Part shown: positions 4,151 through 59,366 of the stretch, piece after piece
Layout: the number at the start of each line of letters is the position of its first letter
How positions within the stretch are numbered: position 1 is the stretch's first letter
Source of the DNA: a virus
Length of the DNA stretch: 64,000 nt
IMG/VR virus record: IMGVR_UViG_2795385563_000001
Reading direction: 5' to 3' (one strand)
The notes under the pieces: model-generated
Database searches by the model: none
What the model saw: only the letters and a program-made list of their open reading frames with translations
What the model was told of the DNA's origin: nothing
Translations under genes and position numbers: made by a program

Positions 4151-4155
4151 GCAGG

Positions 4156-20495: not shown

Positions 20496-20694
20496 GGCCG
20501 CTCCTTGTCTGCAGTTCGCCTCGTTCCAACGCGCGAAGAATACACAGATACGTACTGTGCATCACCTGCATACATAGTCGGCAACAATGCGGCAAGTCGC
20601 CACTCGCGCCGCGCTCAACGCTGCTGCCGAACATCCCCTAGCCTCCGCCGGAACATCGCGTCAGCCCGACCGAGAACCTTCAGGAGACCGACAC

Positions 20695-26797: not shown

Positions 26798-27116
26798 GGC
26801 TCCCTTGCTTGCTGAACGATCGGATGGGGTCGATACGAAAGGACGAAGCGCCTCCAGCGCGCATATAGGGATAGGTCAGCGGATGGACTGCGTACGTGGC
26901 TCCTACCGCGTTGAGGTCGGCCCATCTTGTCGCCTCTTCTGCCGAATCAAACGGACCAACGAACCGCGGAAGGAATGGTTTTCCCCACGTGATATCGAGG
27001 ACGTATTTCTCATCGCCTGCCACTGTCGCTCCTGTGCTGATTGGGCGTTCGCACCCCAAACGGGTCAAGTTCAGCTCGACTGACGTCGAATCATCTTCAT
27101 TTACACGGTCATCCAC
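26781..27116 (-). CDS. Hypothetical protein
   Basis: 111 aa, just downstream of polA. Confidence 0.35.
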   Translation of the reverse strand: MDDRVNEDDSTSVELNLTRLGCERPISTGATVAGDEKYVLDITWGKPFLPRFVGPFDSAEEATRWADLNAVGATYAVHPLTYPYMRAGGASSFRIDPIRSFSKQGSHDARI

Positions 27117-34129: not shown

Positions 34130-36102
34130 CGGTTACCGACCTGGCGCCCGCGTCCGCTCCGGAGCAGATGGCTTTCCCGGTTGCCGCCGCGGTCAGCAAC
34201 GAGCCACGTCAGCTGCGCGGGTACCAGATCCAAGCCGCCGATGCAGTCTGCGATGCCTATAACCGTGGTGTCACGGGACCGGCGGTCGTATTGCCCACGG
34301 GCACTGGGAAGTCCAGCGTAATTGCCGAATTGGCACGCAGAGAGGTGACTGTCGGCGGTCGCGTGCTGCTGATGGCCCATCGCGACGAACTGATCAAGCA
34401 GATGGCCCAAGCCGTCACAGCGGTGAATCCGGCTGGTCCCCTCCCCTCCCTCATCGGTGGAGGGAATCGTGATGACCCAACCGCTCAGATCGTCTCGGCC
34501 ACAGTGCAATCACTGCAGACTGAGGCGGCACTAGCCAGAATCGGGCACCGCGACATCGTCATCGTCGACGAGGCCCACCACGCGCCTGCCCGGACCTACC
34601 GCAAGGTGCTCGACCATTTCACTGCTCTGGGCGCGCGCCGGGCCGGATTCACCGCGACGATGATCCGCCACGCACCCAATAAGAATGAGCCTGCGTTGCG
34701 GACCATTTGGGAAGAGGTGGTCTTCGAACGCGACATCCCCTGGGCGATTGAGAACGGCTTCTTGATAGCGCCAGTTGGGGTGACCGTCGAGCTTCCCGAG
34801 CTCGACGTATCCGCGTTGAAGGCCGGCAGCGGCGGCGACATCTCCGATGAGGTCGCCGAAGAGGCGATGATGCGCGAAACGACCCTGAACGCCACCGTCG
34901 AGGCGGTTCTGACTCGCACCGAGGGCCGCTCGTCCATCGTCTTTGGGGCCTCCCTGTTGCACTGTGAGCAGCTTGCAAAATCGCTCGTCGAACAAGGTGT
35001 GTCAGCTGAGGTAGTCGTCGGTGACACCAAAACCAAAGTGCGCAACGGCATCTACAACCGATTCCGCCACGGGACCACTCAGGTCTTGGTGACCGTCGAT
35101 GTACTCACCGAAGGCGCCGACTTCCCCCGCTGCGAAGCGGTCGTGCTGGCCAGGCCGACGCGTAGCCAGTCCCGGCTCGTCCAGTGCGTTGGGCGTGCCC
35201 TGCGGCCGCACACTTTCGAGGACGGGACGGTCAAAGACACCGCACTTGTCGTCGATCTCGTGGGCGCCGGGTCCCTGGGCCTGATGGTCAAGACCCGCCT
35301 GGACCCCGAGCACCGCGACAAGACTGATGAGGACGAAGAAGGGTTCGGTTGCTACTGCCAGCAGCCGTGCACAAGTGACGAATGCGACTTCTCCTGCACC
35401 GGAATAGGTTGCGAATGCAACTGCACGTGTGCGAGCGAGCCGTCTGAGTCAGGCCCGGCCAGCGATCCGGCGTCCAGTGTTCCCTGCACCTGTGCGTGCT
35501 CGCTGGCATTCGGGCTGTGCCGCTGCGGATGCGAGTGCGACCTGCACCGCATCGATCCGCTGCGCACCTTCGATCCGGTCACCGGAGAGATGACAGCGGC
35601 GGGGAAACAGCGACGGGGCGATTCGAGCTGGTCTCAGCGCACCTCCACCATCCGGTGGGTCCGCCACTCCCGCGGGATGGTCCGGACGGTCTACCGGTCC
35701 AACGGACACAAGGGCGTATTGCTGCTTGCCGACATGCGCGGTGTAGCCGGGACTGTGGCCGGACGGGATTGGGCCTTCGGATTCTTGGACAACTCGGTGC
35801 ACCGGATGTACTGGGTAGGCATCGACGGGCAGTGGACCGAACCCGGCCCGCGGTGCCATCTGCAAGGGCTGACCTTGTTCGAGGCAGACGCGCTGGCCCA
35901 GAGCATCTTTGCCGACCACATGCGCGACTCAACGCGTTCTGAACCCTCGACTGCGCAGGTCGATTTCGCCGCGCAGTTGGGAGTACCCGACGCCGGCGCG
36001 CTTGACCGCCGCGACCTGAGCGACATGATCGCGCTCGCTCAAGCCGAGTACTGGCTTCCCACATTCACACGCCCCGAAAGCGCCGTGGGAACCGCAGCCT
36101 GA
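34126..36102 (+). CDS. SF2 DEAD/DEAH-box helicase with Cys-rich insert and C-terminal domain
   Basis: Motif I LPTGTGKS. Motif II VDEAHH. Motif VI QCVGRALR. Then GFGCYCQQPCTSDECDFSCTGIGCECNCTCAS...CTCACSLAFGLCRCGCECD (about 25 Cys in 90 aa). Confidence 0.7.
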   Translation: MTVTDLAPASAPEQMAFPVAAAVSNEPRQLRGYQIQAADAVCDAYNRGVTGPAVVLPTGTGKSSVIAELARREVTVGGRVLLMAHRDELIKQMAQAVTAVNPAGPLPSLIGGGNRDDPTAQIVSATVQSLQTEAALARIGHRDIVIVDEAHHAPARTYRKVLDHFTALGARRAGFTATMIRHAPNKNEPALRTIWEEVVFERDIPWAIENGFLIAPVGVTVELPELDVSALKAGSGGDISDEVAEEAMMRETTLNATVEAVLTRTEGRSSIVFGASLLHCEQLAKSLVEQGVSAEVVVGDTKTKVRNGIYNRFRHGTTQVLVTVDVLTEGADFPRCEAVVLARPTRSQSRLVQCVGRALRPHTFEDGTVKDTALVVDLVGAGSLGLMVKTRLDPEHRDKTDEDEEGFGCYCQQPCTSDECDFSCTGIGCECNCTCASEPSESGPASDPASSVPCTCACSLAFGLCRCGCECDLHRIDPLRTFDPVTGEMTAAGKQRRGDSSWSQRTSTIRWVRHSRGMVRTVYRSNGHKGVLLLADMRGVAGTVAGRDWAFGFLDNSVHRMYWVGIDGQWTEPGPRCHLQGLTLFEADALAQSIFADHMRDSTRSEPSTAQVDFAAQLGVPDAGALDRRDLSDMIALAQAEYWLPTFTRPESAVGTAA

Positions 36103-36139: not shown

Positions 36140-37135
36140 ATGTCGATGACACAAGAAGTGCGTGACGAAATGTGCCGCGCCACATCGATCCACCAAGGCT
36201 GCAGGCGCGCGCAAGTCGCGGCAATCGCGCGTCTGACCGGTGAGCTGCGTGTTTCTCGCACCGGCCTGATAGTGCATCTCGAAGTAAATACCGGCTCGGT
36301 CGCGCGGTACCTGCGCCGAGAGATCACGGCGCTGTACGGGCACAAAGTGAGCGTGACCGTCAACAATGAAACCGGTCTGCGTCGGGGCGCGCGCTACACC
36401 GTGCGCGTAACCGAAGGAGGCCGGGACCTGGCCCTGCAGATAGGTCTGATCGATCTACGCGGCCGACCGGTCACCGGACTACCCGCAATGGTGGTGGGTG
36501 GCTCACCGGGCGAAGTCGCCGCTGCCTGGCGCGGGGCCTTCATGGTCGCCGGATCGCTCATTGGACCGAGTCGTTCAAGCGCGCTGGAAATCAGTTGCCC
36601 CAGTCCAGAAGTGGCGTACGCACTCGCCAGCTGTGCCCGCCGCCTTGGTGTGCAGCCCATCGTGCGTACCGCTCGCGGTGTCGACCGAGTGACGATCCGC
36701 GACCACGACAACATCGGGGTGCTCCTGACCCGCCTCGGCGCCGAGGAGTCCCGGATATCCTGGGAGCGGCGCATCGCCCAGCGGGCAATGCAGGCAACGG
36801 CCATTCGCTTGGTCAATCTCGATGACGCCAATGCCCGACGCTCCGCGCGTGCAGCAGCCGCTACTGCTGCGAAAGTGGAGCAGGCGCTGGCGATCCTGGG
36901 CTCGGAGGCGCCGGAACACCTGGCGCATACCGGCCAGCTGCGTCTGGATCATCGAGAAGCCTCGTTGGAAGAACTGGGCCAGCTCGCACAACCGCCCATC
37001 ACCAAAGACGCCGTCGCAGGTCGGTTGCGCCGGCTGCTGACCATGGCTGATCGGCATGCCGCCGGTGAGGAGTTCGACGAGTTCGATCCGGAGCACCCTG
37101 CTGGTGAAACCGTCCGGCTCCTGGCGGGGGCGTAA
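36140..37135 (+). CDS. whiA: WhiA homologue (LAGLIDADG-like domains plus C-terminal HTH)
   Basis: Collinear and highly similar to M. tuberculosis WhiA over its full length: ...EITALYGHKV..., AWRGAFMVAGSLIGPSRSSALEISCPSPE, NLDDANARRSARAAAATAAKVEQALAILG, PPITKDAVAGRLRRLLTMADR. Confidence 0.8.
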   Translation: MSMTQEVRDEMCRATSIHQGCRRAQVAAIARLTGELRVSRTGLIVHLEVNTGSVARYLRREITALYGHKVSVTVNNETGLRRGARYTVRVTEGGRDLALQIGLIDLRGRPVTGLPAMVVGGSPGEVAAAWRGAFMVAGSLIGPSRSSALEISCPSPEVAYALASCARRLGVQPIVRTARGVDRVTIRDHDNIGVLLTRLGAEESRISWERRIAQRAMQATAIRLVNLDDANARRSARAAAATAAKVEQALAILGSEAPEHLAHTGQLRLDHREASLEELGQLAQPPITKDAVAGRLRRLLTMADRHAAGEEFDEFDPEHPAGETVRLLAGA

Positions 37136-44061: not shown

Positions 44062-44628
44062 TCAGGTCAGCTCCTGCGCTCCGGGGTACTCTCCCCTGCC
44101 TTCAACCTCCGGGTGCGGCTCTTTGGCGATCTGTGCTGCTGTGCGCAGACCCACCACCGAGTAGACGATGACAGACAACCCCCACAGGACCAGCATCGCG
44201 AGCCGGATTGGGTCGAGGTACTCGGGGCCAGGCGTTGGGATTATCAAGGCCAGTGCACCGACGGTGGCATACAGCGTCAACGCCAAACCGCGGGAGTTCC
44301 ACAGCCATTGCCGACTCGCGAGGAACGGACCAGCCAGAAGCCCGATACTGAATGCGAGTAAGAAAGCGCACCAGCCCAACACAGCCGAGAAATCATGAAT
44401 CATGTCGTAGTTCGACATACCGAAGCGGTCACACCCCACACGCCGCGGGTCATCGTACTCAAGTGCGCAGAGGTAGCCACTAGTTCGTGTCCGTACCAAC
44501 CAGCCCAGAGCGATGAGCAGTCCGGTCACCACGCTGAATACCATCGACGCGATGGCCAGGTTCGAAGCGTCGGGATCGCCTCCTTCGCCGCTGGATCCGC
44601 TTGGAACAATGATGGGAATCGGAATCAC
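44062..44628 (-). CDS. Polytopic membrane protein
   Basis: About 5 predicted TM helices. Confidence 0.45.
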   Translation of the reverse strand: MIPIPIIVPSGSSGEGGDPDASNLAIASMVFSVVTGLLIALGWLVRTRTSGYLCALEYDDPRRVGCDRFGMSNYDMIHDFSAVLGWCAFLLAFSIGLLAGPFLASRQWLWNSRGLALTLYATVGALALIIPTPGPEYLDPIRLAMLVLWGLSVIVYSVVGLRTAAQIAKEPHPEVEGRGEYPGAQELT

Positions 44629-45029
44629 TTCGACCTGCTTTCATGTGTGCTGTAAACGTATGGGCCAGCGCCAGAATCGACGATGACAGGTATTCCCGAG
44701 GCGTCCGCCCGCCTGACGCAGTCCCAGGTACCGCGAGAATCTGCGTCAGGAAAAGCAAGGCAGATGTCAGCGGCGAGGTCTACCATCTCTTGGTTTCGCA
44801 TGGGGCCCGCGGCTTTACCGTGTACTTGCCACGCCGCTGGATGGGGTTCGACTACGAACCCCATCCCGTCGGCGATCGCCGCGGCGATGATGTCTGCGCC
44901 CCCGTATGGGCATTCACCGTGGACAACGGTCACTTCGTGGGAGTTACGGCCAGCGGAAGCACTGCGCAAGGCGGTATCGATCCTGTCACGTTCTGTCCAG
45001 CGGCGGCTGCCGGTTATCAATATGCGCAT
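44625..45029 (-). CDS. SLOG-superfamily / DUF2493 (DprA-like Rossmann) protein
   Basis: MRILITGSRRW...VVHGECPYGGADIIAA...GPMRNQEM...GIPVIVDSG follows the DUF2493 pattern. Confidence 0.55.
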   Translation of the reverse strand: MRILITGSRRWTERDRIDTALRSASAGRNSHEVTVVHGECPYGGADIIAAAIADGMGFVVEPHPAAWQVHGKAAGPMRNQEMVDLAADICLAFPDADSRGTWDCVRRADASGIPVIVDSGAGPYVYSTHESRSK

Positions 45030-46706: not shown

Positions 46707-46727
46707 GCCTCCGGCCTCAATCCCAGG

Positions 46728-47294
46728 TCAATCGAACAGGTTGCTCATGTCCCCGATCACTTCGGAGTCGAAGGGGTTAGCACCTGCCTTGGCATGTTTC
46801 TCAGCAGCAGCGGCCCGTTCAGAGTCTGCCTTCGCGGTGTACCTGCGCGCCGCTTCTGCGTTGATGCGCTCTTCCTCCTGCAGTGCGGCTTCACTGGCGC
46901 TCGTGGGGATTTCGAAGCCGATGTGCGCGTCGACCCGCTCCCCGTAAAAGCCCTCGACCAACGCCGACAGCCGCGGGTCGTTCGGTTCGGCGTCGGTGAG
47001 ATAGGCCACCACCGTGGAGAACACCATCGGCGTCTGATTCACGCCGTTCTCGTCCGGCTCAATCTCCTGCATGATGCGGATGCGGCCATGCGTGATCGTC
47101 GGGCGGATACCGATTCCAATGCGGTCCAGCTCATCGCGCACGTCAGCTGCGAGTTCATCGGTTTGTTTGGCGATGTCGTACTCGTGAGCACGCAGGATGT
47201 CGAACAGCGCAGCCGTGAAGTACACCGCCAACGTAGGGGCTCCGGTGTCGGCATTGATCGGCCGGAAGTATGTAGCGCTTTCAGGGGCAGTCAT
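46728..47294 (-). CDS. Hypothetical protein
   Basis: 188 aa, acidic. Confidence 0.4.
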   Translation of the reverse strand: MTAPESATYFRPINADTGAPTLAVYFTAALFDILRAHEYDIAKQTDELAADVRDELDRIGIGIRPTITHGRIRIMQEIEPDENGVNQTPMVFSTVVAYLTDAEPNDPRLSALVEGFYGERVDAHIGFEIPTSASEAALQEEERINAEAARRYTAKADSERAAAAEKHAKAGANPFDSEVIGDMSNLFD

Positions 47295-47384
47295 GATTCA
47301 AGTTGCCTTTCATTGGCGGTGATATTCATGCCGGATGCTAGATCTAATACACGGCATATCGAGGACGCAACACCTGCGACGACA

Positions 47385-47419
47385 GAAGACCCGCACCCGA
47401 GTTGCGAGTGCGGGTCTTC
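47385..47419. terminator. Hairpin terminator (minus-strand orientation)
   Basis: GAAGACCCGCAC-loop-GTGCGGGTCTTC. Confidence 0.55.
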
Positions 47420-47446
47420 ATTGGTCGTCACGCAGCGGTATGCCGG

Positions 47447-48115
47447 CTAGGCGGCCGTTGTCGTCCACCACTGGAACTGGCTGATGGCAGCTTCACGCAG
47501 GAAGCCGATCACCTGCTCGACGCTGTATCCAGCCGCGCCGTATCCCGAGTTCTGATCGTCCAATGCCCGAAGGACCTTGGCATCGTTGTCGTTGCTGGTG
47601 GGGACCTTGATGGCCACACCAGTAACGGCCTGTTCGCCTCGCTGGAAGCAGGTGACCAGCTCGTTGCGAATGTTCTTCTGCATGATCGTGATGTTCTTGG
47701 CCTCCGTGAACTGACCGGTGACCGGGTCGAGCACGATGTAGTCGACGGTCGGAGCGATAACTTGATCCTTTTCGTACTTGCTGTTGCGCGGTCCGATCCC
47801 CAACAGGCGGAACAGGATCGGCTTGTTGAAGTGCTCATCGGGGATGCCGCCTCCACCGCTGTTCGGGATCACACCGATGTTGGGCGCAACGGCGCTGACG
47901 CCCGCGTATCCGGCCGGTAGGCCGACTGGTGCAGCAGTCGGAACTGCAGTCGCTGCCACGGGGGCGGCGGCAACGGGCGCTGCTGCGGGAATCGCCGCTG
48001 CGGGTGGTGCGGCGGGAACTGCAGCCACGGGTGGTGCTGCTACCGGAATCGGGGCCGCCGGAGCAGCCGGGACGCCGGCCACGGGGGCTGCGGAGGGAGC
48101 AATAGGAGCGGTCAT
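47447..48115 (-). CDS. Ala/Pro-rich N-terminal protein with globular C-terminal domain
   Basis: (PAA/PVA)n for about 80 aa, then a conserved-looking domain. Confidence 0.4.
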   Translation of the reverse strand: MTAPIAPSAAPVAGVPAAPAAPIPVAAPPVAAVPAAPPAAAIPAAAPVAAAPVAATAVPTAAPVGLPAGYAGVSAVAPNIGVIPNSGGGGIPDEHFNKPILFRLLGIGPRNSKYEKDQVIAPTVDYIVLDPVTGQFTEAKNITIMQKNIRNELVTCFQRGEQAVTGVAIKVPTSNDNDAKVLRALDDQNSGYGAAGYSVEQVIGFLREAAISQFQWWTTTAA

Positions 48116-48305
48116 GATGGTGCCTCTTTTCAGGTGCTGTTGAAGTTGCTGTTGCTGTTGTATGTCGATCCAGATGCATCTTCGCTGGCTGGCTTGCCCG
48201 TCTTAGACGCTTGAGATCCGCACCGACTGCATAACTATTTACACTGCAAGTACGACAGGCAACTGAGACGGCAAATGCCGGTTTCCTCGGCGTGTCGCGG
48301 CGGCG

Positions 48306-48470
48306 TCAGCACTTTCGAATTCGCCCGTAGGCCGCTGTTATCTCTGGATCGTTTAGGTACCGCACGAGAAAGTTGTCGGCCTCACTGTGTGCCATTTCCG
48401 GGTCACTGAGACCGACATCGTGCAATTCCCGGAGCTTTTGCATCAGCTCCGATTTGGTGAAGGAAGCCAT
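48306..48470 (-). CDS. Possible small helical protein (54 aa, below the track cutoff)
   Basis: MASFTKSELMQKLRELHDVGLSDPEMAHSEADNFLVRYLNDPEITAAYGRIRKC, read by eye. Confidence 0.25.
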   Translation of the reverse strand: MASFTKSELMQKLRELHDVGLSDPEMAHSEADNFLVRYLNDPEITAAYGRIRKC

Positions 48471-48564
48471 GAGCGGTGTCTACCGCTCATGCACGGAAAC
48501 GACTCCCCCTGAGACGCGTGTTCACCGCGAATCGGTAGACGTGTCCGGGTCGGCCGGTTGGTGG

Positions 48565-49020
48565 TCAGCCGAACAGAACCAGCGTCACGACCACCGGCGA
48601 AGCCTCCGCAACCTCCCGAATGATCTGCTCGGCCACTGCGGGATCCAGACCGCCGATACCGCCGCCGATAAGTGGTAGCGCGACAGAACCGATCCCCTGC
48701 TTATGCGCCAGGTCTAGCCCCTGAGTCAGAGATGCGCGCAGCCACTGCTCGGTCGCATCGGGACCCGGCTGATTCTGACTCGCACAGTGGATGATGGGGC
48801 GACCCAGCCCGGCGTCACGGCCTTTGTTACGGGTGAACACAGCCGAGCCGGGCGTGATCCGCCCCTGCTGCGCAAGGATGACGTACTGAGTCATCGCGTC
48901 GGGATAGCGGTCCGCCATCACCGAGGCCAGGCCCCCGGTGACGCCCTGGCAATTCACTCCGTGCGCCAATGCCTCAGCTGGATGGGCGAACAAGTCGCCG
49001 GTCTCGACGGTGAAGCTCAT
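48565..49020 (-). CDS. Macro domain protein (ADP-ribose binding/processing)
   Basis: VETGDLFAHPAEALAHGVNCQGVTGGLASVM...GSVALPLIGGGIGGLDP matches the macrodomain fold. Confidence 0.7.
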   Translation of the reverse strand: MSFTVETGDLFAHPAEALAHGVNCQGVTGGLASVMADRYPDAMTQYVILAQQGRITPGSAVFTRNKGRDAGLGRPIIHCASQNQPGPDATEQWLRASLTQGLDLAHKQGIGSVALPLIGGGIGGLDPAVAEQIIREVAEASPVVVTLVLFG

Positions 49021-50086
49021 CGATGCCTCCTCAGACTCGATCCGAATGGGGGACGCGACGGATTGTCCTGTACGTCCCCCAACTGCCAGGGTTCAATGGC
49101 ACGGGCCCGGCTCAGTCTTGCGAGCTTGCCGAGCAGTAGGTCCGACATCTTGTCGCCCTGAACTTCGGCGTCACAGTCACCTTGGGCATCTACGGGAACG
49201 GGATACCTTCTGTCGATGTGGAAGCCCACCATTGGGGTTGGATACTGATCCGACGGCAACTTGCGCAGCATTTTTCCGTACGGTCGGCCAGCAGGTATGT
49301 GAGCGGCGTCGTCAGTCCCTATCAGCGCGCGTGAGTGCTCAGGTCTGTTGACCCTCAGTGAGAACCTGAATCCCAGCAGAGCATCCAGCCCTTCAAGCAT
49401 CGGCTCGGAGAAGTGTTCACCGGCCAGAAGCAGGTGCACTCCGGCCGAGGCCCCGTCTCGTGCGATGTCCATGAGCCGGTTTCGCTTCTCTGGATTCTCC
49501 TGTAGGACCCAGCAGAAATTGTCGATGACCGCTACCAGATCTGGTAGCGGCGGACAATTACCGTCAACAGCGCGTGCACAGCGTTCGCGCCGGTATTCGG
49601 CACTGCTCCGGCAGTGTTTGGACGCGAGAAAGTCCTCTCGACGCCGGATCTCAGCTGTGAGAACAGCCAACGTCCAGTCAATGGTCTCTTCGGGTTTGTC
49701 ATGACCTGACACGTTTGCGACCGTGTGGGGCAACGCCTCGAATCCTCGGAACGTCGCGGTCCCCATCCCGTCAGCCAAGAACAGCGAAAGCCGATCCGGC
49801 CCATACCTGGTCGCGAGCGACAAGACCATCGACCGCAGGAAGTAACTTCTTCCCGCCCCGGTCCGCCCCTGCACGGCGCCGCTGGTTCCGTCACGCGAAA
49901 AGTCCAGGGTGCTCAGCTCTGGGATCAGCGCGTCGCCGACACGCAGATAACCTGTTGGTATCGCGACTGAGTCAGCGTGAGCGTTCCGCGCCCATGCCGC
50001 CGCGGGGTTGTAGGTTTCGATGTCGTCGATACCGAGCACGTCGAAGAAGTCCGGAATCTTGCCGTCACTGTCTGCACCGATGGCGC

Positions 50087-50090
<4 letters not shown>
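49017..50090 (-). CDS. Stand-alone FtsK/SpoIIIE ATPase domain, close paralogue of EccC ATPase domain 1, with Walker A Lys replaced by Arg
   Basis: DFFDVLGIDDIETYN...GAVQGRTGAGRSYFLRSMVLSLATRYGPDRLSLFLADGMGTATF versus EccC DFFEVLEIGDIETHD...GAVAGRTGSGKSYFLRAVVLALIAMYGPDKVALILADFKGGATF. Walker B VAVIDNF. Confidence 0.7.
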
Positions 50091-50905
<815 letters not shown>

Positions 50906-51524
50906 GTCCCGTCGTCCTTTCCATTGGTTGAAACGGCGCCTGGTGGTTCACGCGCTGTGTCCGCGCTAGATGAAGCGAGCCGCAATCTAGGACTGACCGA
51001 CCGACGAGCCAGACCGCGGCGCGTACCCGGAAATGCCCGAGAGCACACCCGCGATCACGCATCGCTCAAATCGCCCCTATCAATCGCCCCCGCCGACCGG
51101 TTCAGCAGCCGCTCCGATCCAGTACGGAGCCTGGCTGCGGAGTTGTCTCCAACGCGCGTGCGCACGCGCAAGACCGCCGCTTCCCCGAATTCGCTCAATG
51201 TCACGCTCAGAGGTGCGCTCATTGGGTCGATCAGCACCTCGCTCAGAAGCCCCGCCAAAACCCCACTCAACTCCGCAGTCAATATTGCGATACGCACTAA
51301 AGCTCCACGGCTGGAAAGTGTTTCGCGCTTCCACTTGGTCGCGGCCCAAGTATTCGCGCCGCCGTGACCCCGCTCAGCCGCGCGCTCAACTCGACGTTAC
51401 GGAACCTCTAGCTGCAGCCCGGCGCACGAGGACCACGGATCGGGGGACGTGACATCCATCGCGCCACGGCGGGTGTCGTGTCGCGTGCGATCCGATTACG
51501 GGTTGCGCCGCACACTGCGCCCCC

Positions 51525-52301
51525 ATGGGCTCGCTGAAATCTCTTCCGGGAAACGACAAGCTGCTGGGTCAGCTCCTGCAGACGCTGCTTGTGCTGGCTG
51601 CTGTGGCGGTCATTGTGGTCTTGATCGTCAACGGCACCTTGTTGGGCAAGGACAGCCGGATATCATCCGTGCTCAGCAAAATCACCGGTCAAGAACAAAG
51701 CGATGAAGTAGCGCCATCGGGCTCAACGACGGCAAGCGGCAGCGGAACTCCCAGTCCTGATCCATCGACGCTGACCGTCGCTGCGCCCGGATCCAAGAAT
51801 GGCTATGCACGCGCACGGTTCGGACAACCATGGACTGACGACGTCGACGTAGAAGGCGGCCATAACGGGTGCGGCACGCGTGATGACATCCTGCAGCGTG
51901 ACCTCACCGGCATAACCCTTTCCGGCTCATGCAAAGTCATGTCCGGAACGCTTGCCGACCCGTACACCGGACAGATCATGTCGTTCGTCTACGGCAAGAA
52001 GACATCAGCTCTCGTCCAGATCGATCACCTAGTGAGCCTGTCAAATTCTTGGGTCTCTGGTGCCTCGACATGGGACTTGTCCGAACTCAAGAAGATCGCG
52101 AACGACCCGTTGAATTTACTTGCCGTCAACGGGTCTTCCAATGAAAGCAAGGGCGAGAAGTCTGCCGATCAGTGGCTTCCGGAGAACACCGCGTTCGACT
52201 GCACCTATGTCAAGCGACAGGTGATGGTCAAGAACAAGTACAGGCTCACCGTGACCGCCGCTGAGAAAGCCACGATGCAGCAATTCTACGGCGCCTGCTG
52301 A
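51525..52301 (+). CDS. Membrane-anchored/secreted HNH-type nuclease-like protein (DUF1524-like)
   Basis: N-terminal TM helix, Ser/Thr/Pro linker, then GHNGCGTRDD...IDHLVSLSNSW...NLLAVNGSSNESKG (His/Asn/Asn HNH-like). Confidence 0.5.
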   Translation: MGSLKSLPGNDKLLGQLLQTLLVLAAVAVIVVLIVNGTLLGKDSRISSVLSKITGQEQSDEVAPSGSTTASGSGTPSPDPSTLTVAAPGSKNGYARARFGQPWTDDVDVEGGHNGCGTRDDILQRDLTGITLSGSCKVMSGTLADPYTGQIMSFVYGKKTSALVQIDHLVSLSNSWVSGASTWDLSELKKIANDPLNLLAVNGSSNESKGEKSADQWLPENTAFDCTYVKRQVMVKNKYRLTVTAAEKATMQQFYGAC

Positions 52302-52357
52302 CAACGGGCTCGTGCCTGATGCGTCAGCCCGGCGAAGCCGCCTCTACGGTGCGCGGC

Positions 52358-53089
52358 ATGTCTATCGTTCGTACATGCATGGCCGCAGTTGTTTTCGTTG
52401 CGTCCCTATGCCTTCTGGCTGCCGGATGCGACCATTCGGACATGGCGCAATCACCGGTCCCATCCACTGTCACCGAACCCGACGGCGTGTCGCGCGGAGC
52501 CGACGCAACGTTGCTGATGAACGATGCAGTCTCAGCGGCCCGGGCAACACCATCCGCGCGCCTGCTGTTCTCCAGCACCAATGTCGCCGACCTGTTGGCG
52601 AAGGCATACGCCGCTGACGTGACCGTCACTCCCGCTATCGCAGCGCGCGGAAACGCCACCTTGAAGATCAACGGCGACTACACCCAGGCTCAGTTCCGCA
52701 CCGGCGAGGGAACCTTGTGGGTTCAGGGATCTGACGGCGCATTCGTGAAGGTTGGACGTGCGCGCGGCACACTCGATCCCGCCGCGCTGCTCGATCCTGC
52801 GCGAGGGATCGCAGGTCTGCTTGCCGCTGTGGATTCTCCCGTGATCGAAGAGCCGCATGCTTTCGCGGGTTCGGATGCGGCGATCAAAGTTACGGGGACC
52901 CTGCCTTCGCCGTCTGCCAGTGCCTTGATTCCAAAATCATCGCTCGGGGACGCCAAGGAACTTCCCGCGGCCCTGTGGTTGGCGCCGCAATCACCGCACC
53001 AGTTGATGCAGCTGACCATCGCGGTCGGTGACGGATCGCTTGCGCTCAGAGTTGAAAAGGGCGAGCCGTTCACTATTCCCGTGCAGTAG
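52358..53089 (+). CDS. Lipoprotein (lipobox LAAGC)
   Basis: MSIVRTCMAAVVFVASLCLLAAGC. The start was moved to ATG 52358. Confidence 0.5.
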   Translation: MSIVRTCMAAVVFVASLCLLAAGCDHSDMAQSPVPSTVTEPDGVSRGADATLLMNDAVSAARATPSARLLFSSTNVADLLAKAYAADVTVTPAIAARGNATLKINGDYTQAQFRTGEGTLWVQGSDGAFVKVGRARGTLDPAALLDPARGIAGLLAAVDSPVIEEPHAFAGSDAAIKVTGTLPSPSASALIPKSSLGDAKELPAALWLAPQSPHQLMQLTIAVGDGSLALRVEKGEPFTIPVQ

Positions 53090-53127
53090 CGCCTCATTTA
53101 GGGATCCCTTCATGGACTGAACAACAC

Positions 53128-53163
53128 AGCGCCCCGGCGCCTTTCACAGGTACCGGGGCGCTG
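53128..53163. terminator. Hairpin terminator between convergent genes
   Basis: CAGCGCCCCGG-loop-CCGGGGCGCTG. Confidence 0.55.
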
Positions 53164-53181
53164 CGCTGAGCAACGCCGATG

Positions 53182-56100
53182 CTATGCAGACTGCCGAAGC
53201 GCCTGCCGCTCTTGCTGCAATTTCCTGTCCACCGCGTCGACATCGATCCGCGCGGTCTGCACCATTGCATAGTCGTCCGCATCTACGATGATTCGGCCCT
53301 GTCCAGGACGCCAGCGCATCGGCTTGAGGTGGTAAGCCTGGCCGATTGGATCGCCGGATGACGGTGGGCTAGCCAGCTGCAGGATGGGAGCCATCATGTT
53401 CTCCCGCAGCGCCATCAGGAACTCGGCCGACTTCACCTTGCTGGCGAACCCGCTGTTGTCCGAGACGATGAAGTGCACGCCGAGGTCTGTTCCGGAAGCG
53501 AGCAATTCACTAATCGTCACCCCGCCATACCGCACCTCGTCGAACACCGACTTCGACGAGTAGCCCTTGGCCAGGTTGGAGAAGTTGTCGACGAACACGT
53601 AAACCTCGGGTCCAGTGAAGAAGGTCCGGGACTTGAGCTCATCGGCAGTGGCGTCGTCGGTGGGGCGACGAGATCCCATTAGCTTGACCAACATCTCCGC
53701 CGTTTCGGCGATATCTTCGGCACTGGTGACATATCCCGGTGGACGCATCCGCTCCCGCACCATCGCACCGTCGCGCTCCACCTCTTGGAACTTGGCGGGC
53801 CTGACGAATCCGCGGGCATACAGGCGATCTCGCTCCCCCAGGTGCTGGCGAAGCGGGTCGATCACGATGATGATGGCGTCCTTCGGGGTGAACTGACGCA
53901 TCACCGACTCCATGAAGCTGCGCATCAGATTGCTCTTGCCGGCGCCCTTCTCGCTGTACACAAGCAGGTTTTGTGAGAAGTTCGGCATCGGCGCCAGGTC
54001 CAAAGTGTCCATGCGGACACCCAGCGGGATGATCGTGTGCATGGGATGCCGGTGAGGATCGCTCAGTGGCGCGAACGTCGACCACATGTGCTCGTAGTCG
54101 ATGACCGGATCGGCGGGCAGAACCTTGGGAACTCTCTGATCGGCTAGCTCGGCGTCAAGATAGGTGCACAGTTCTCGGATCTCTTCGCCGTAATCGTGAA
54201 TCTTGAAGTCCTTCATACCTCCCACGTACCCGTCCTCTTCGATCTCTCGGAAGATGGGCACCGCGGTGCGCGCCTGCAACATCGTGAACGGATCGAATGA
54301 ACGGCCAGGCTGATCCACCGGGATACGCTCGCTCAAGGTGAAGCGCACCTCGGACGAGACTTTCGCCCCACCGTAGTCCGTAGAAGGGAGCTGTACACCG
54401 CCGTTGACCTCCGCGGTGTAGTGAGTCACGTTGCCCGCGTTTCCTGATCCGCCTGAGTCAGCGGTGTAGACCAGGTGCACGCCCACCGCGGCGCCCTTGT
54501 CGAGGATTGGGCGCAACAGTTGCGCACGGTCGGCGCGCTCGTCCTTCTCGCCCAGGAATCCTCCGATGCCGTCAATAGCCACGATCACGTACCCGTAGGG
54601 GTCGCCTTCGACGGGGACAGCGGACTCACCAGACTTGGACGCCAGGTACGCGTCCACCGACGAAGCTTGGCGATCCACCATTTCGCGACGACGTAGGTCG
54701 ATCAGGCGGGAGGCCTCACCGAGAATGCGCGCTGTGGTCTCGTCGTCCTCCGGTCGCGCATAGGCCGCAACGTTCGGGCTGTCCTTGACTTCTCCGAGCT
54801 TGCCGGTGCCGTAGTCGACCAGCATGAACGCAAGCCGCGCCGGTCCGTGCTGGAGGCATCCGCAGATGACCAGCGTCTGTAGCAGGGTCGTGCGCCCCGA
54901 CTTGCCAGCGCCCGCGATCACCTGGTGTGGCAGGTTTCCGCCGAAATCCACGAACCAGGGCAACCGCGTGTGCTTTTCGGGTGCATCGAGGTCACCGACC
55001 CTGATCCTGATCCCGCGCTCTTCACGAGTCAGGTCCAACGTGGGCAATGACAGCGGCTCACGTAGCGATGGTTTCCACAGATCCAGGGTGCGCATTTTTG
55101 ACAGACGCGAGGCCTTTTCCAAGAGAACATCGGCCATCTTCTCGCCGAGCTCCTCCTCGGTGACCTCAACGTTATCTTCCTTTACCTCGGGTTTGAATTC
55201 CCCGGTGGCGAAGAACGTGAACGGAACTACCGTCTCCGCGACTGGTCCGGATCCGTCCGCATGCACACGAGATCGCTCGGTCACCGTGCGCCTGACGTAC
55301 GGCGCCTCGTGATGGAACGCCGCTACTTCAACAGGCTTGGCGTCAGTGGTGAACTTGCGCAAGATCTTTCCCTTGAGCCCGCCCTTCTTGCCCACCATCG
55401 TCGCCGCGTCGTCTGTGCCCAGCATCGCGACGGAATAGCTCGTGCTGTTGACCGCCAACGAGTAGCGGAAGGTCAAGTGCTCGAACAGATCACCGATGAC
55501 ATCCTTGTTGATGAACTGGCTGCACATGACCAGGTGCATACCCAGCGAGCGGCCCACGCGCCCGACGCGGATCAGCATCTCCAGATAGCCCGGGCGGCCT
55601 TTGAGGAATTCGCCGAACTCGTCGATGATCACGATCAGGTCAGGAAGCGGAGGCCAGTTCGGATCGTTCGGGTGCTTCTTCTGCTGCTCCCGGTAGTCGA
55701 AGATGTCCTTGCAGCCCTTTTCGGTGGTGATGAACTCCTCCCGGCGGTCCACCTCTCCGTTGATGACCGCGCCTAGGCGATCGACGAGTTCCATCGTGTT
55801 CTCGAGGTTGGAGATAGACGCCACGACGTGCGGCAGCTTGTCCATCCCCAGGAACGTCGCGCCGCCCTTGAAGTCAGCAAGAATGAGCGCGACCTTGTCC
55901 GGTCCATACATCGCGATGAGCGCCAGGACTACCGCGCGCAGGAAGTAGGACTTACCGGAACCGGTTCGGCCCGCCACCGCTCCGTGCGGACCGTTTCCGT
56001 CTCGGTTCTCTTCGTAGAAGTTCAGGTATGTCAGCTCGGGGGTGAGCTCATCGCCCTTGCGGTAGTAGCCAAACGGCACCTTGATCTCGTCGGTGTAGGC

Positions 56101-57465
56101 GTTGCGCTTCCACACCTCGATCAGGTCGTGCGTCTCGATGTCGCCGATCTCGAGCACTTCGAAGAAGTCCGGGATGTGGTCGGGACGATCGTCGACCACT
56201 TCGCCGCCGACGCCGTAGTTGCGCGGCCGCCATTTGTACATGGTCTGGGCGAAGACTGCGGCCTCGGCGATCGTCGCTGAGTCGGCAGCCGCAGCGTCGT
56301 AATTATCGACAGTCGAGACGCGGCCGTCCTTGAGAAGGATGCGACTCTTCATCTCGACGGGGTCGGTAACCAGATCTTGGCCGCAGCGCACCACGAACCA
56401 GGTCATGCCCTTGACACCGCCCGCGATGTTCGCCGGCCAGGACACCATCGCATCGGGGGTATCGATGATCAGAATAAGATGCGGGGGCCGGTTGTCGCTG
56501 TCCTCGTTGCGCATGCGCTCGATCTGCGCGGCGTGCTTGACCGCGAATTCATCGATGCTGCGCCATGTCAGAAGCCGTGCGCCCAGCCCCTTTTCAACAC
56601 GGGTCACGTCCTCGGCATGTGGCAGCCACTTCACCCATTCCCAAGTCTCGGGGTCATCGGTCACCACGCCGACGTTCAGATCGCTGGGCCGGTGGTTGAA
56701 CGCCAGCGACATCAGCATGGCCCGTACGAGCCCCAGGCGCCCCTGCTCATCTCCGCGCATCGCGTAGGCGGGAAACTCGTCGAGGCGTACGTCGAGCGGT
56801 AGGTTGGCGACTACCGACAGCGTGTCCATCGCGCGCCCGTAACGCACCATAGTCGCCGGTTCCTGCATCTCCGGCACCACATCTGGCGCCTGTATGAGTT
56901 TCGGAAACAGCGGCGCCACACCGATTCCGACACGAGCCCGCAGATATGGGTTCGAGGTCAGATTTTTGACGTCGGGGTCCGACTCCTGGTCCGCCTGAAC
57001 TACGCGACCGATTTCGGGGTTGGAATCGGCCTGCCACATTTCGTGAGAGCCGATCAGGGAAAGAAGATCAGCCGGGTGCGGGAAGCATTGGGTTCGCAGG
57101 TCATGCATGGCCTGCCCCTGCTCGTAGATTTCAAAACGCTGCTCACGCAGTTCCAGGTCGTATTCCTCTATGTCCTGGTCGATGTCGCCACCGCTGTTGC
57201 CCTGGCTGCGCATCTGCGCGATGTACATCAGCGGCATCATCAGCATGATCGGCATCGTGGTGAGCATCGTTGTGATGGCGCGTTGTCCGGTGACCAGCGA
57301 CATGACAACCATGCCGACCATGAGGCCCACCATCATCAATGGCATGAAGCGGAGCCAGATCGGGCGCTTGTCCGGCGCCGGCAGGCCTAGCGGCTCTTTG
57401 AGTTGTACACCGGTGGGCGACAACTGAACTGATTCGCGCGGGGGAACCCGGAAAACAGTGAACAT
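53182..57465 (-). CDS. eccC: EccC-like type VII secretion FtsK/SpoIIIE ATPase (TM segments, DUF domain, three P-loop domains)
   Basis: 1427 aa. N-terminal RFMPLMMVGLMVGMVVMSL...MLMMPLMYIAQM...HPADLLSLIGSHEMW...VKWLPHAEDV is collinear with M. tuberculosis EccCa1. P-loops GRTGSGKSY, GAGKSGRTT and GAGKSNLM. ATG preceded by AAGGAAGGA. Confidence 0.85.
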   Translation of the reverse strand: MFTVFRVPPRESVQLSPTGVQLKEPLGLPAPDKRPIWLRFMPLMMVGLMVGMVVMSLVTGQRAITTMLTTMPIMLMMPLMYIAQMRSQGNSGGDIDQDIEEYDLELREQRFEIYEQGQAMHDLRTQCFPHPADLLSLIGSHEMWQADSNPEIGRVVQADQESDPDVKNLTSNPYLRARVGIGVAPLFPKLIQAPDVVPEMQEPATMVRYGRAMDTLSVVANLPLDVRLDEFPAYAMRGDEQGRLGLVRAMLMSLAFNHRPSDLNVGVVTDDPETWEWVKWLPHAEDVTRVEKGLGARLLTWRSIDEFAVKHAAQIERMRNEDSDNRPPHLILIIDTPDAMVSWPANIAGGVKGMTWFVVRCGQDLVTDPVEMKSRILLKDGRVSTVDNYDAAAADSATIAEAAVFAQTMYKWRPRNYGVGGEVVDDRPDHIPDFFEVLEIGDIETHDLIEVWKRNAYTDEIKVPFGYYRKGDELTPELTYLNFYEENRDGNGPHGAVAGRTGSGKSYFLRAVVLALIAMYGPDKVALILADFKGGATFLGMDKLPHVVASISNLENTMELVDRLGAVINGEVDRREEFITTEKGCKDIFDYREQQKKHPNDPNWPPLPDLIVIIDEFGEFLKGRPGYLEMLIRVGRVGRSLGMHLVMCSQFINKDVIGDLFEHLTFRYSLAVNSTSYSVAMLGTDDAATMVGKKGGLKGKILRKFTTDAKPVEVAAFHHEAPYVRRTVTERSRVHADGSGPVAETVVPFTFFATGEFKPEVKEDNVEVTEEELGEKMADVLLEKASRLSKMRTLDLWKPSLREPLSLPTLDLTREERGIRIRVGDLDAPEKHTRLPWFVDFGGNLPHQVIAGAGKSGRTTLLQTLVICGCLQHGPARLAFMLVDYGTGKLGEVKDSPNVAAYARPEDDETTARILGEASRLIDLRRREMVDRQASSVDAYLASKSGESAVPVEGDPYGYVIVAIDGIGGFLGEKDERADRAQLLRPILDKGAAVGVHLVYTADSGGSGNAGNVTHYTAEVNGGVQLPSTDYGGAKVSSEVRFTLSERIPVDQPGRSFDPFTMLQARTAVPIFREIEEDGYVGGMKDFKIHDYGEEIRELCTYLDAELADQRVPKVLPADPVIDYEHMWSTFAPLSDPHRHPMHTIIPLGVRMDTLDLAPMPNFSQNLLVYSEKGAGKSNLMRSFMESVMRQFTPKDAIIIVIDPLRQHLGERDRLYARGFVRPAKFQEVERDGAMVRERMRPPGYVTSAEDIAETAEMLVKLMGSRRPTDDATADELKSRTFFTGPEVYVFVDNFSNLAKGYSSKSVFDEVRYGGVTISELLASGTDLGVHFIVSDNSGFASKVKSAEFLMALRENMMAPILQLASPPSSGDPIGQAYHLKPMRWRPGQGRIIVDADDYAMVQTARIDVDAVDRKLQQERQALRQSA

Positions 57466-57485
57466 TGCAGTTCCTTCCTTGGTAG

Positions 57486-59366
57486 TCAGCGACCGACGGT
57501 CGAGGCGTCGTTGGTGGCCTGCGCCCGATCTGCGGTGTCCGAGCTTGAGCTAGCCGCAGGGTCCGGGGTAGTGGCATCAGGCGCAGGCGCCTCTCCCTCT
57601 TCCTCGGGGACCGGCGCGGGCGGAGGTTGTCCTTGCGTCGTTGGCGGGTTCGGTACCTGCGATGCGGGGTTGATGGTTCCCTGCATGACTTGTGCGTTCT
57701 TGATCGACAACGTCGCTCCAGGTGCGTACAACTTGGCGACCGCCGCGGGGATGGGTGTCGGCGAAATCGAGTCGAAACCAAGGGCTTTGACAGTTGGGTC
57801 GTAGGACACCGCGCCGTTGCGGGCAATCACCACGTCAATCGGAAACCGGGTTCCATTGGGATCGATCCACAGCAGTTGCTCGGCGGCCACCGAATCTGTG
57901 CTGTCACCGGTCGTTCGGGCATACCATCCGTACCCGGGGCGGGTGATCGAATCAGTTGCCTGGTCGGTAGACCCGTTGTTGGGCAGTAGATGTACGGCGG
58001 CAACGCGTCCGGACTCAGTGACCGGCATCCGAGAATTAGTGAAGATGCGAGTGTGCGCTGTGAGCTCACCAGCGGACTTGGTCCAGCTCCAGCACAGCGC
58101 GGGCTCACTGACCAGCGTCGGCACCTGCGTGGGAAACCGTGAGTCGTCGACGATCCCCACCCGAGGCATCGCCTGCACCGAGGCAGGGTCGTCGACGAGC
58201 TTCTGCGCCGCCCCGGTGTTGATCATCATCTGCGCCAGTACGGGACTGACCTGTTGCACTCCTCCAGAACCAACCAAATAGAAGGCCCGTGAGCCCGATG
58301 CCGTAGCCACCGTGAGCACGTCGCCGATGGCGGAGCCGTTCACCGTTGGGCTGGGCTGCCCTTGGTTAACGAGCCTGGGCGCGGTGAGCACGGGCGACGG
58401 CGCAATCGTTGCGAGCAGCGAAGGTGAGACAGTCACTGCGGTCTCGATAAGCGACGGTGTCAGTCCGAGAGCGGCCTGCGCGGCATAGTCCCCACGCCCA
58501 ACTTCAGCTCGTGTGTCGCGATACAGCAGCCACAACCTGGTCGGATCGCTGGCAGGTTTGACCAGCACCGCTCGGTTGCTTCCCAGATCGGTTCCGCCAT
58601 CAAGCATGTCGTCTCCGGCAATCACAGCGGTGGTGATGTCGCCGGTCTTAAGAAGCGACAGCGGCACCGCTGTGTCGCGCCAGTCGCAGACGGTCCACAC
58701 AGCTGACTCGTCAGTGCGCGGGGACAACAGATTGGGCGCACTGGGAATACCCATCAGGGGCCCGGTGGGTAGTGAACGCAGCGCCGTGTCGGTGGCGACC
58801 TTGGCTTCTTCTGGCGTGCCGACAATCAGACGAGCCGAGGCCAGGTTGGTCACCGGGTGCAGGCGGCCGTTGAACTGAACGAATATGCCGCCGGAGCGGG
58901 TTGTCATGATCGCGGCGACGCCCGAATCGGGCTTCGGGTTGATCAACGAGACAACGAATGCCGCTACGAGAACAAGTACGCCGCCTACGAGGCTGATCGA
59001 CAAGGATCCACGCAGACGCGTAAGGGGCGATCCAACGCCACGCACATCCTGACGGGACAATGCCTCGTCGATGCGATTGAGTTCGCGCTTATACCCCTTG
59101 ATCTGGCGAGTGGTGGTCAAAAACCACGGCACTGCCCCATCGGCGCGGTTGGGCTCACGTTTGCGCCCCTCGGACTGTTGGTCGTTGCTCAAATTCCCAG
59201 ACACCGCAACTCCTTGCTCGCCAAGCCGACCGGCCGGCTGGCCGTGTTCGATGCGTGGGGAGAGTGGCAAAATCTCGCGGATACACAGCTCTGGGGCGCG
59301 AGGAGACGTCAGCGCCAACCGCGCCGATCTGCGAACGTGGTGTATTCTCCGTTTTAGAGAACTCAT
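57486..59366 (-). CDS. eccB: EccB-like type VII secretion membrane component
   Basis: FLTTTRQIKGYKRELNRIDEA ... single TM ... GRLHPVTNLASARLIVGTPEEAKVATDTALRSLPTGPLMGIPSAP...AVWTVCDW ... PALCWSW are collinear with EccB1. The true start is probably GTG near 59132; the called N-terminal 78 aa are doubtful. Ends 20 nt before the eccC start. Confidence 0.8.
   Translation of the reverse strand: MSSLKRRIHHVRRSARLALTSPRAPELCIREILPLSPRIEHGQPAGRLGEQGVAVSGNLSNDQQSEGRKREPNRADGAVPWFLTTTRQIKGYKRELNRIDEALSRQDVRGVGSPLTRLRGSLSISLVGGVLVLVAAFVVSLINPKPDSGVAAIMTTRSGGIFVQFNGRLHPVTNLASARLIVGTPEEAKVATDTALRSLPTGPLMGIPSAPNLLSPRTDESAVWTVCDWRDTAVPLSLLKTGDITTAVIAGDDMLDGGTDLGSNRAVLVKPASDPTRLWLLYRDTRAEVGRGDYAAQAALGLTPSLIETAVTVSPSLLATIAPSPVLTAPRLVNQGQPSPTVNGSAIGDVLTVATASGSRAFYLVGSGGVQQVSPVLAQMMINTGAAQKLVDDPASVQAMPRVGIVDDSRFPTQVPTLVSEPALCWSWTKSAGELTAHTRIFTNSRMPVTESGRVAAVHLLPNNGSTDQATDSITRPGYGWYARTTGDSTDSVAAEQLLWIDPNGTRFPIDVVIARNGAVSYDPTVKALGFDSISPTPIPAAVAKLYAPGATLSIKNAQVMQGTINPASQVPNPPTTQGQPPPAPVPEEEGEAPAPDATTPDPAASSSSDTADRAQATNDASTVGR
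59345..59361. promoter_or_regulatory. Dyad operator motif copy 5 (TTCTCCG-TTT-TAGAGAA)
   Basis: 30 bp upstream of XRE gene ATG 59392, in the divergent region toward eccB. Confidence 0.55.

Follow-up and report, generated by a model that had tools for sequence, protein, structure and literature searches.

What can a secretion ATPase domain do once it has been separated from its motor and has lost catalytic residues? This question is raised by the IMG/VR record IMGVR_UViG_2795385563_000001, of which a stretch of 64,000 nucleotides (hereafter, the window) is considered here. Along with the type VII (ESX) secretion genes eccB and eccC, the window contains a gene for a stand-alone 357-aa protein (hereafter, the paralogue) related to the first ATPase domain of EccC (D1, also called nucleotide-binding domain 1, NBD1), with arginine in place of the Walker A lysine. 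An earlier interpretation based on the nucleotide sequence (hereafter, the sequence-only reading) took it for a catalytically dead near copy of EccC D1. We find that the paralogue has the D1 fold, has lost the catalytic set (the Walker A Lys, the catalytic Glu in part of its family, and six other D1-invariant residues), evolves under purifying selection, and has accessory status in its element. We tentatively explain these observations, with a probability of about 0.45, by a soluble, non-hydrolyzing pseudo-ATPase that probably binds nucleotide and acts in trans as an accessory or regulatory subunit on the element's own EccC.

A Soluble D1 Domain With Linker 2

The open reading frame (ORF) is present exactly as claimed in the sequence-only reading (Table 1). 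Residues 12–336 of its product align to residues 431–798 of EccC, that is, to D1 and linker 2, with 39% identity and 56% positives (BLASTP, E 1e-75); the match to D1 scores 236 bits vs ~26 bits for D2, the D2 and D3 matches being much weaker. Thus, the proposed homology stands, but the "near copy" turns out to be an old, fast-evolving paralogue. It consists of a soluble D1 fold and the linker-2 helix, without the transmembrane helices, the DUF (domain of unknown function) region, D2, or D3, and hence is indeed the membrane-free D1 derivative that had been suggested, comprising D1 plus linker 2 only.

The profile searches agree with this domain content. The paralogue passes the cutoff of the Pfam family FtsK_SpoIIIE (PF01580; 76.1 bits, cutoff 24, E 3.5e-21, residues 70–228), and scores below the cutoffs of TIGR03924 EccCa (178.8 vs 509.15 bits, profile positions 396–647 of 673 only) and TIGR03925 EccCb (96.3 vs 346.55 bits); PADLOC yielded weak generic FtsK-like matches only (mad8, SspH). 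The AlphaFold2 model has a predicted template modeling score (pTM) of 0.78 and a confident core, with low confidence at residues 79–81 and 247–282. Its top match in the PDB is 4NH0, the cytoplasmic domain of EccC from Thermomonospora curvata (Foldseek, E 2e-19, TMq 0.71), followed by D2–D3 of EssC/EccC, FtsK motors (E ~1e-13), and TcpA.

The ExxRR and LPH motifs of EccC D1 are kept in the paralogue, and the ~35-aa variable insert of linker 2 of the cognate EccC is absent from it. In EccC5, the linker-2 helix and a Trp–Gln dyad fill pocket 1 of NBD1, keeping NBD1 inactive, and substrate specificity is determined by the disordered, variable portion of linker 2 (PMC7384006).

Degeneration of the Nucleotide-Binding Site

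The Walker A motif of the paralogue, GRTGAGRS, departs from the canonical GxxGxGK[ST], and comparison with GRTGSGKS of EccC D1 confirms the Lys-to-Arg replacement noticed in the sequence-only reading. Beyond that reading, the catalytic Glu of Walker B is lost as well: the motif VIDNF departs from hhhhDE and from IIDEF of EccC, the Walker B Asp190 being retained. Another pattern described as common to both proteins, LAD..GGATF, holds only approximately; the paralogue reads LADGMGTATF, the D1-conserved Lys and Gly of that stretch having been lost.

Among 5.8 billion proteins searched, the paralogue family is represented by only four clusters at 90% identity, which are 100, 79, 66, and 68% identical to the query and 357–360 aa long; the source assemblies are of the Mycobacteroides abscessus type wherever the organism is named. 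In ten out of ten members retrieved (over 100 assemblies), the Walker A Lys is replaced by Arg, whose codons in the four loci read at the DNA level are AGA, AGA, CGA, and CGT. Since Arg is fixed in all members with three codons, the substitution is old and fixed, and a sequencing error at this codon, named in the sequence-only reading as a possible refutation, is ruled out. The position of the catalytic Glu is less uniform, with N, D, D, or E; one allele reads ND, and two members of one subclade keep DE.

For comparison, we considered the D1-like domains that scored best in the top 150 proteins of a HMMER search (1.84 billion representatives), as well as the EccCs of the four loci. Full-length EccC D1 domains have the Walker A Lys in 120 out of 120 cases and the catalytic Glu in 97%. 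Among the best-scoring D1-like domains of 136 proteins, those without Lys belong to the ten paralogue-family proteins, P0063 (Val), and the 611-aa P0143 (Arg). Residues H70, K81, E83, K109, G111, R139, E194, and R214, conserved at 80–100% in the 120 D1 domains, are retained by no member of the paralogue family, other residues standing in their place; moreover, S215 is mostly replaced, and the sensor Q225 is replaced in part of the family. The cognate EccC D1 retains these D1-conserved residues except E83 (Tyr). By contrast, Ser82 and the glycines of the P-loop do not vary, even at identities as low as ~36%. The loss of R139 and R214 would argue against a canonical active hexameric ring. The Lys-to-Arg change is only one of at least eight family-wide replacements of D1-invariant residues, and the position of the catalytic Glu is unconstrained (N, D, or E). 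The non-catalytic role suggested earlier is the most reasonable reading.

Natural Lys-to-Arg Replacements in D2 Domains

Arg is found at the Walker A Lys position of 44 out of 439 FtsK-like domains of the collected proteins. Outside the paralogue family, such domains mostly follow D1, typically at residues 750–1050 of canonical-size EccCs, which is the D2 site, and a few are of the D3 type or in other positions; the catalytic Glu is absent from them wherever Walker B was aligned. D2 of 93 canonical-size EccCs has Lys in 75 cases, Arg in 17, and Thr in one, and Glu in none of the 93, mostly Asn or Gly occurring instead. Thus, we found no indication that Lys-to-Arg P-loops are hydrolytically active in this clade, which the sequence-only reading had considered as another way to be refuted.

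According to published data, EccC has its canonical, active site in D1, the sites of D2 and D3 being degenerate, with little or no activity, and regulatory (PMC11154593). Lys-to-Arg P-loops are a recurrent, selected state in regulatory domains of the EccC family, and in the EccC clade they occur where hydrolysis is already dispensable. With both Arg and Asn, the paralogue of the window combines a site of the D2 type with a scaffold of the D1 type. When the Walker A Lys of a P-loop ATPase is changed to Arg by engineering, e.g., in RecA K72R, nucleotide binding is typically kept, and ATP is hydrolyzed hundreds of times slower.

Selection and Evolutionary Rate

The ratio of non-synonymous to synonymous substitution rates (dN/dS, omega) was calculated for four loci pairwise by the Nei–Gojobori method. 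The paralogue, with dN/dS of 0.23–0.42 at dS up to ~1, is clearly under purifying selection. It is also the fastest-evolving gene of the block, changing three to five times faster than the parent domain: dN/dS is 0.02–0.10 for the D1-coding part of the cognate eccC, ~0.05 for eccB, 0.03–0.06 for the clamp-like gene upstream of the paralogue, and 0.07–0.28 for the Macro gene downstream. The tightest constraint of any region falls on residues 61–130, which form the P-loop core (omega 0.12); residues 251–296 have omega 0.14.

The nearest relatives of the paralogue form the D1 clade of the element's own EccC, at a Kimura distance of ~1.0 substitution per site. This distance and the 39% identity rule out a recent duplication.

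Proposed Role of the Paralogue

We suggest that D1 of EccC was duplicated in giant mycobacterial mobile elements, within their ESX lineage, and that the resulting paralogue was inserted as an accessory gene between the clamp-like and macrodomain genes. Its Gly-rich P-loop, with Arg81 and Ser82, may still bind nucleotide or a phosphate ligand without turnover, as EccC D2 domains with SGR[ST] and no catalytic Glu presumably do; the constraint on the P-loop core would speak for such binding only indirectly. The paralogue would then work by binding and, most plausibly, would dock on the element's own EccC, either via contacts of the D1/D2 type or via exchange of its linker-2 helix with pocket 1. 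An EccC-directed role is ranked first because of the D1 origin of the protein, the retained linker-2 helix, the D2-like site, and the constant proximity of eccB and eccC, which lie ~3–9 kb from the paralogue (EccB–EccC within 3.1 kb) in the window and in loci L005, L006, L007, L017, and L018. The identity of the partner is the weakest step of this explanation.

Several observations weigh against it. Residues 79–81 of the P-loop have a predicted local distance difference test score (pLDDT) below 50, so that the geometry of Arg81 cannot be judged from the model; similarly, the linker-2 helix is confident and the Trp–Gln dyad is not, so that docking in cis cannot be judged either. The region of the linker-2 helix and the dyad is weakly constrained (omega 0.67), being the loosest part of the protein along with the tails. 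The operon of the paralogue is co-oriented with the ecc operon, but separate from it and headed by the clamp-like gene. In P0063, a distant stand-alone relative, Val replaces the Walker A Lys and Walker B reads HD, and therefore contact with phosphate may not be needed across the wider family. Finally, the paralogue is absent from three sister elements that keep the eccB–eccC–LppX–GmrSD_C–clamp backbone (M. fortuitum L011, Tsukamurella plasmid 13, and pCBMA213_1); the same EccB–EccC is present there, and thus EccC does not need the paralogue.

Table 1. Features of the window discussed in the text.
Feature	Position	Strand	Details
Stand-alone EccC-D1-like pseudo-ATPase gene (paralogue)	49017..50090	-	ORF, 357 aa, ATG start
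N-terminal motif IPDFFDVLGIDDIETY	50010..50057	-	Common to the EccC D1 start and other soluble D1 paralogues
Degenerate Walker A GRTGAGRS (aa 75-82)	49845..49868	-	Arg81 codon AGA at 49848..49850
Degenerate Walker B VIDNF	49515..49529	-	Asn (N191) where the catalytic Glu is expected; EccC D1 reads IIDEF
Linker-2 alpha-helix KMSDLLLGKLARLSRAR (aa 314-330) and Trp335-Gln336 dyad	49083..49151	-	Alignments
Clamp-like gene	50087..50905	-	272 aa; upstream of the paralogue, translationally coupled
DarG-type macrodomain gene	48565..49020	-	151 aa; downstream, translationally coupled; Pfam Macro 2.4e-12
GmrSD_C-type HNH nuclease-domain protein and LppX/LprAFG-family lipoprotein	51525..53089	+	258 aa and 256 aa
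Cognate membrane EccC	53182..57465	-	1427 aa; D1 canonical (GRTGSGKS, IIDEF); D3 with Lys
EccC D1 Walker A GRTGSGKS	55948..55971	-	
EccC D2 Walker A GAGKSGRT	54889..54912	-	Natural Lys-to-Arg
EccC D2 Walker B AIDGI	54565..54579	-	
EccB	57486..59366	-	Directly upstream of EccC; TIGR03919 304 bits, cutoff 154
Soluble protein, D1-like (GRTGSGKS, Walker B IDDV) and EccA/CbbX-like AAA+ (GPSGTGKT, AAA_lid_6)	15710..17767	+	685 aa
RNase H domain protein	1751..2749		
Band-7/SPFH protein	14499..15239		
RNase T-like exonuclease	18279..19037		
SLT transglycosylase-domain protein	20587..21513		
Family-A DNA polymerase with 3'-5' exonuclease	27101..29896		931 aa
RadD/XPB-like helicase	34126..36102		
WhiA-like protein	36140..37135		
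PHROG 289 match	44625..45029		Probably counterpart of the YAcAr/SLOG gene of relatives

Gene Neighborhood and a Possible Role in the Operon

The junctions of the paralogue with both neighboring genes are ATGA overlaps (50087..50090 with the upstream gene and 49017..49020 with the macro gene), so that the link to the macro gene proposed in the sequence-only reading stands, the two genes being translationally coupled. The gene order is the same in six loci: NT5C, a helix-turn-helix (HTH) gene, eccB, and eccC; LppX and GmrSD_C on the opposite strand; and then a gene for a 263–272-aa protein, the paralogue, and Macro. A scan of positions 46500–51700 for promoters and terminators, uninformative for mycobacteria, found none.

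The 272-aa upstream protein has no match in Pfam, PHROG, or NCBIfam. Its N-terminal half is modeled by AlphaFold2 with pLDDT of ~70–87, the N-terminal 147 residues forming one DNA sliding-clamp domain, which superposes on DnaN clamps over ~147 columns with a root-mean-square deviation of ~3 A (Foldseek, E ~1e-4). The protein ends in a poly-Asp/Glu tail encoded by (GAC GAG)n, whose length varies between loci. The macro protein matches DarG in NCBIfam (1e-15, below the cutoff) and in PADLOC (3e-18, N-terminal 140 of 329 positions only); it has no DarT-binding domain, and no DarT toxin gene was seen nearby. This gene is a candidate anti-defense gene that would reverse ADP-ribosylation.

These neighbors suggest a serious alternative, even if we consider it rather unlikely: the paralogue may serve its operon, either as a sensor of a nucleotide or ADP-ribose-related ligand or as a scaffold for the DarG-type macrodomain (in relatives, also for the Pribosyltran–NAMPT–NUDIX cassette), within an anti-defense or DNA-protection module expressed with the clamp-like replication gene. 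The two overlaps and the order of the clamp-like gene, paralogue, and Macro kept in six loci are consistent with it, and so are the natural frameshift that joins the paralogue and Macro into a 508-aa protein on two contigs, the NAD/ADP-ribose enzymes downstream in relatives, the nearby SLOG/YAcAr and NT5C genes, the strongest constraint on the P-loop core, and the ability of EccB–EccC to do without the paralogue in sister elements. However, when the window is compared with L007, dS amounts to 0.28 in the paralogue and 0.32 in the clamp-like gene, but reaches 0.82 in Macro and 0.84 in eccC, so the paralogue and Macro are not a co-adapted pair that travels together, and M. fortuitum L011 has Macro and the clamp-like gene without the paralogue. 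The fusion itself may be a homopolymer sequencing error, and we know of no EccC/FtsK-type domain that binds ADP-ribose derivatives. The different dS values imply a mosaic history (46728..59366 vs L007), with recombination breakpoints on both sides of the clamp–paralogue pair.

The fusion protein, P0017 (SLH87313.1 / WP_234809227.1), results from a frameshift in a homopolymer, CCCCC, with which the paralogue gene nearly ends at its 3' side (~49017..49060 in the window); it may be a real allele or a sequencing error. In most relatives, a Pribosyltran–(RyR)–NAMPT–NUDIX cassette directly follows the macro gene (L005, 11562–14649; L007, 11578–15093; L017, 11575–15102), and presumably it resembles phage gene sets for NAD+ reconstitution or anti-defense. 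The cassette is absent from the window (~48116..48564, between the macro gene and the gene of a 222-aa protein at 47447..48115) and from its closest copies L015 and L016. The pair of GmrSD_C and LppX genes, located between eccC and the clamp operon, is kept in all related elements, including Tsukamurella plasmid 13.

Other Explanations

Instead of assisting its own EccC, the paralogue might act on foreign ones. It would then inhibit other EccC motors, such as those of the host ESX-3 and ESX-4 or of the ESX systems of competing elements, in a dominant-negative or competitive manner; by co-assembling with their NBD rings or capturing their linker 2, it would lead to exclusion or to manipulation of the host. 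Dead subunits are known to poison ring ATPases such as hexameric P-loop motors; the loss of the catalytic residues and of R139 and R214 with the fold kept would suit such a role, which would also explain the fast evolution of the paralogue compared to the cognate D1. Nevertheless, the nearest relatives of the paralogue are in the EccC clade of the element itself, not among the chromosomal EccC3/EccC4-type proteins, and omega exceeds 1 only in tails of 11 to 20 residues. We consider this explanation improbable.

We hold it to be similarly improbable that the paralogue is a decaying duplicate without function, kept open only by its operon context. Many catalytic residues are lost, omega is above that of all neighboring genes, sister elements lack the gene, and one subclade shows ongoing erosion of Walker B (DN, DD, ND), as would be expected upon decay. 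At the same time, with dS reaching ~1, omega stays well under 1 and drops to 0.12 and 0.14 in two core regions; the gene has neither stop codons nor frameshifts, keeps the length of 357–360 aa across members 62–79% identical, and is intact on over 100 contigs; and the P-loop glycines and Ser82 do not vary down to ~36% identity. Thus, dN/dS and the conserved length disfavor a pseudogene.

An ATPase that is still active, with Arg81 replacing the Walker A Lys, is highly improbable: the Gly-rich loop, Ser82, and Asp190 are kept, as is the DE Walker B in two subclade members, but the catalytic Glu is Asn in the window copy and variable across the family, eight other D1-invariant positions, including R139, R214, and (partly) Q225, are replaced family-wide or in part, Lys-to-Arg elsewhere is seen only in domains also without the catalytic Glu, and mutants such as RecA K72R hydrolyze slowly.

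Soluble D1-Type Proteins of Related Elements

The window encodes one more soluble D1-type protein, of 685 aa, whose Walker B reads DD (Table 1). Its N-terminal motif RLKKSAREYMAAHPGVKYQQAL is common to P0056, P0043, Tsukamurella WP_068741770.1, and a 375-aa protein of L008. The architectures seen in related elements are D1–AAA+ (P0056), D1–D2–AAA+ (Tsukamurella WP_068741770.1, P0043), and D1 only. The 685-aa protein type looks like an uncharacterized family of soluble EccC/EccA hybrids on Mycobacteriales megaplasmids. The D1-only proteins include degenerate ones, with GIIGSGVS and HD in P0063/P0169, HD in P0113, and TP in the 375-aa protein of L008. P0063 clusters with the paralogue family with 97% neighbor-joining bootstrap support, which may reflect long-branch attraction; its gene has other neighbors than the paralogue. 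Judging by these motifs, soluble and often catalytically eroded D1 modules are a recurrent feature of these elements.

The 22-kb contig L008 contains three small FtsK/EccC-like ORFs (4040–5398, 452 aa; 10001–11104, 367 aa; 15724–16851, 375 aa), which differ in the degeneration of the Walker motifs; genes for Peptidase_M78 and RyR-domain proteins are on the same contig.

A broader generalization, which we regard as quite unlikely, is that soluble degenerate EccC-NBD1 modules (the 357-aa Lys-to-Arg family and P0063-type proteins) form an undescribed class on giant linear-plasmid-like elements of Mycobacteriales. The membrane EccC would be their target in trans, for instance if their linker-2 helix were exchanged with pocket 1 or if they added a D2-like ATP-locked subunit, and they would gate a minimal EccB–EccC translocon, possibly coupled to delivery of anti-defense (macrodomain) proteins.

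The Element and Its Relatives

The gene set of the window (Table 1) marks a giant plasmid similar to pCBMA213_1 or an integrated element. The linear plasmid pCBMA213_1, 274 kb in size, carries genes for PolA, RNase H, FtsK-like proteins, and a type VII secretion system (PMC7478629). The clamp-like gene belongs to the backbone of pCBMA213_1, Tsukamurella plasmid 13, and a 255-kb M. fortuitum contig; it occurs without the paralogue in the three sister elements, which rules out an obligatory pairing of the two genes, such as a clamp-loader-like one. No remnant of the paralogue was found in the sister elements by tblastn; in M. fortuitum L011, a 96-aa ORF lies between the clamp-like gene and Macro, where the paralogue is absent. 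Since the sister elements lack it, the paralogue is a lineage-specific accessory insertion and not a core part of secretion.

One allele of the paralogue is located at 1.97 Mb of a 2.66-Mb M. abscessus contig, and hence the element apparently can be integrated. A prophage origin was rejected, as nothing closer than distant FtsK-like matches below 38% identity came up in 50,697 phage records (tblastn); PHROGs yielded generic FtsK and macro matches only. The GTDB scan with one genome per species found no close relative of the paralogue, only spurious matches in Bdellovibrionales, and the only megablast match of positions 47000–58000 in PLSDB (74%) covers EccC of Tsukamurella plasmid 13. The window has no tRNA genes, compared to a tRNA array in related megaplasmids.

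Comparison With Known Systems

How EccC NBD1 is kept inactive and later activated is an unsolved problem of type VII secretion, for which current models involve displacement of linker 2 and multimerization. A natural, selected soluble module of NBD1 and linker 2 with a D2-like site that binds and does not hydrolyze would be a candidate trans-regulator and a ready reagent for testing these models; should such modules indeed form the class outlined above, they would provide a natural, separable handle on NBD1 activation. The paralogue family is narrow, being confined to M. abscessus-type mobile elements, and dispensable for the same EccB–EccC in sister elements. That EccC itself contains degenerate ATPase-like domains (DUF, D2, D3) is well established; literature searches yielded no description of stand-alone degenerate NBD1 proteins, which are the new aspect here.

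The paralogue shares its fold with NBD1 of EccC as known from T. curvata (4NH0) and M. tuberculosis (EccC5). With D1 of the element's EccC, to which it is 39–43% identical, it has in common the N-terminal, ExxRR, and LPH motifs and the linker-2 helix followed by Trp–Gln. It differs from EccC in being a separate polypeptide, in the Walker A Lys-to-Arg and Glu-to-Asn changes, in the replacement of H70, E83, K109, G111, R139, E194, and R214, and in the deletion of the variable part of linker 2.

Its nucleotide-binding site has the signature of EccC D2, with the P-loop kept, the catalytic Glu absent, and Arg in Walker A (R81 and N191); the SGR[ST] P-loop is found in 17 out of 93 D2 domains, including that of the element's own EccC. 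Still, by sequence the paralogue is a derivative of D1, and it is located outside the EccC chain. The substitution is the same as in the engineered RecA K72R, but in the paralogue it is natural, ancient, and fixed, and accompanied by the loss of further catalytic residues.

Like the paralogue, the other soluble D1 proteins of megaplasmids are all membrane-free, but most of them keep the Walker A Lys, and many carry the N-terminal motif AREYM..H..V.YQQAL or a C-terminal EccA/CbbX-like AAA+ domain. Their gene context differs as well, there being no clamp-like or Macro neighbors in L008 and L009.

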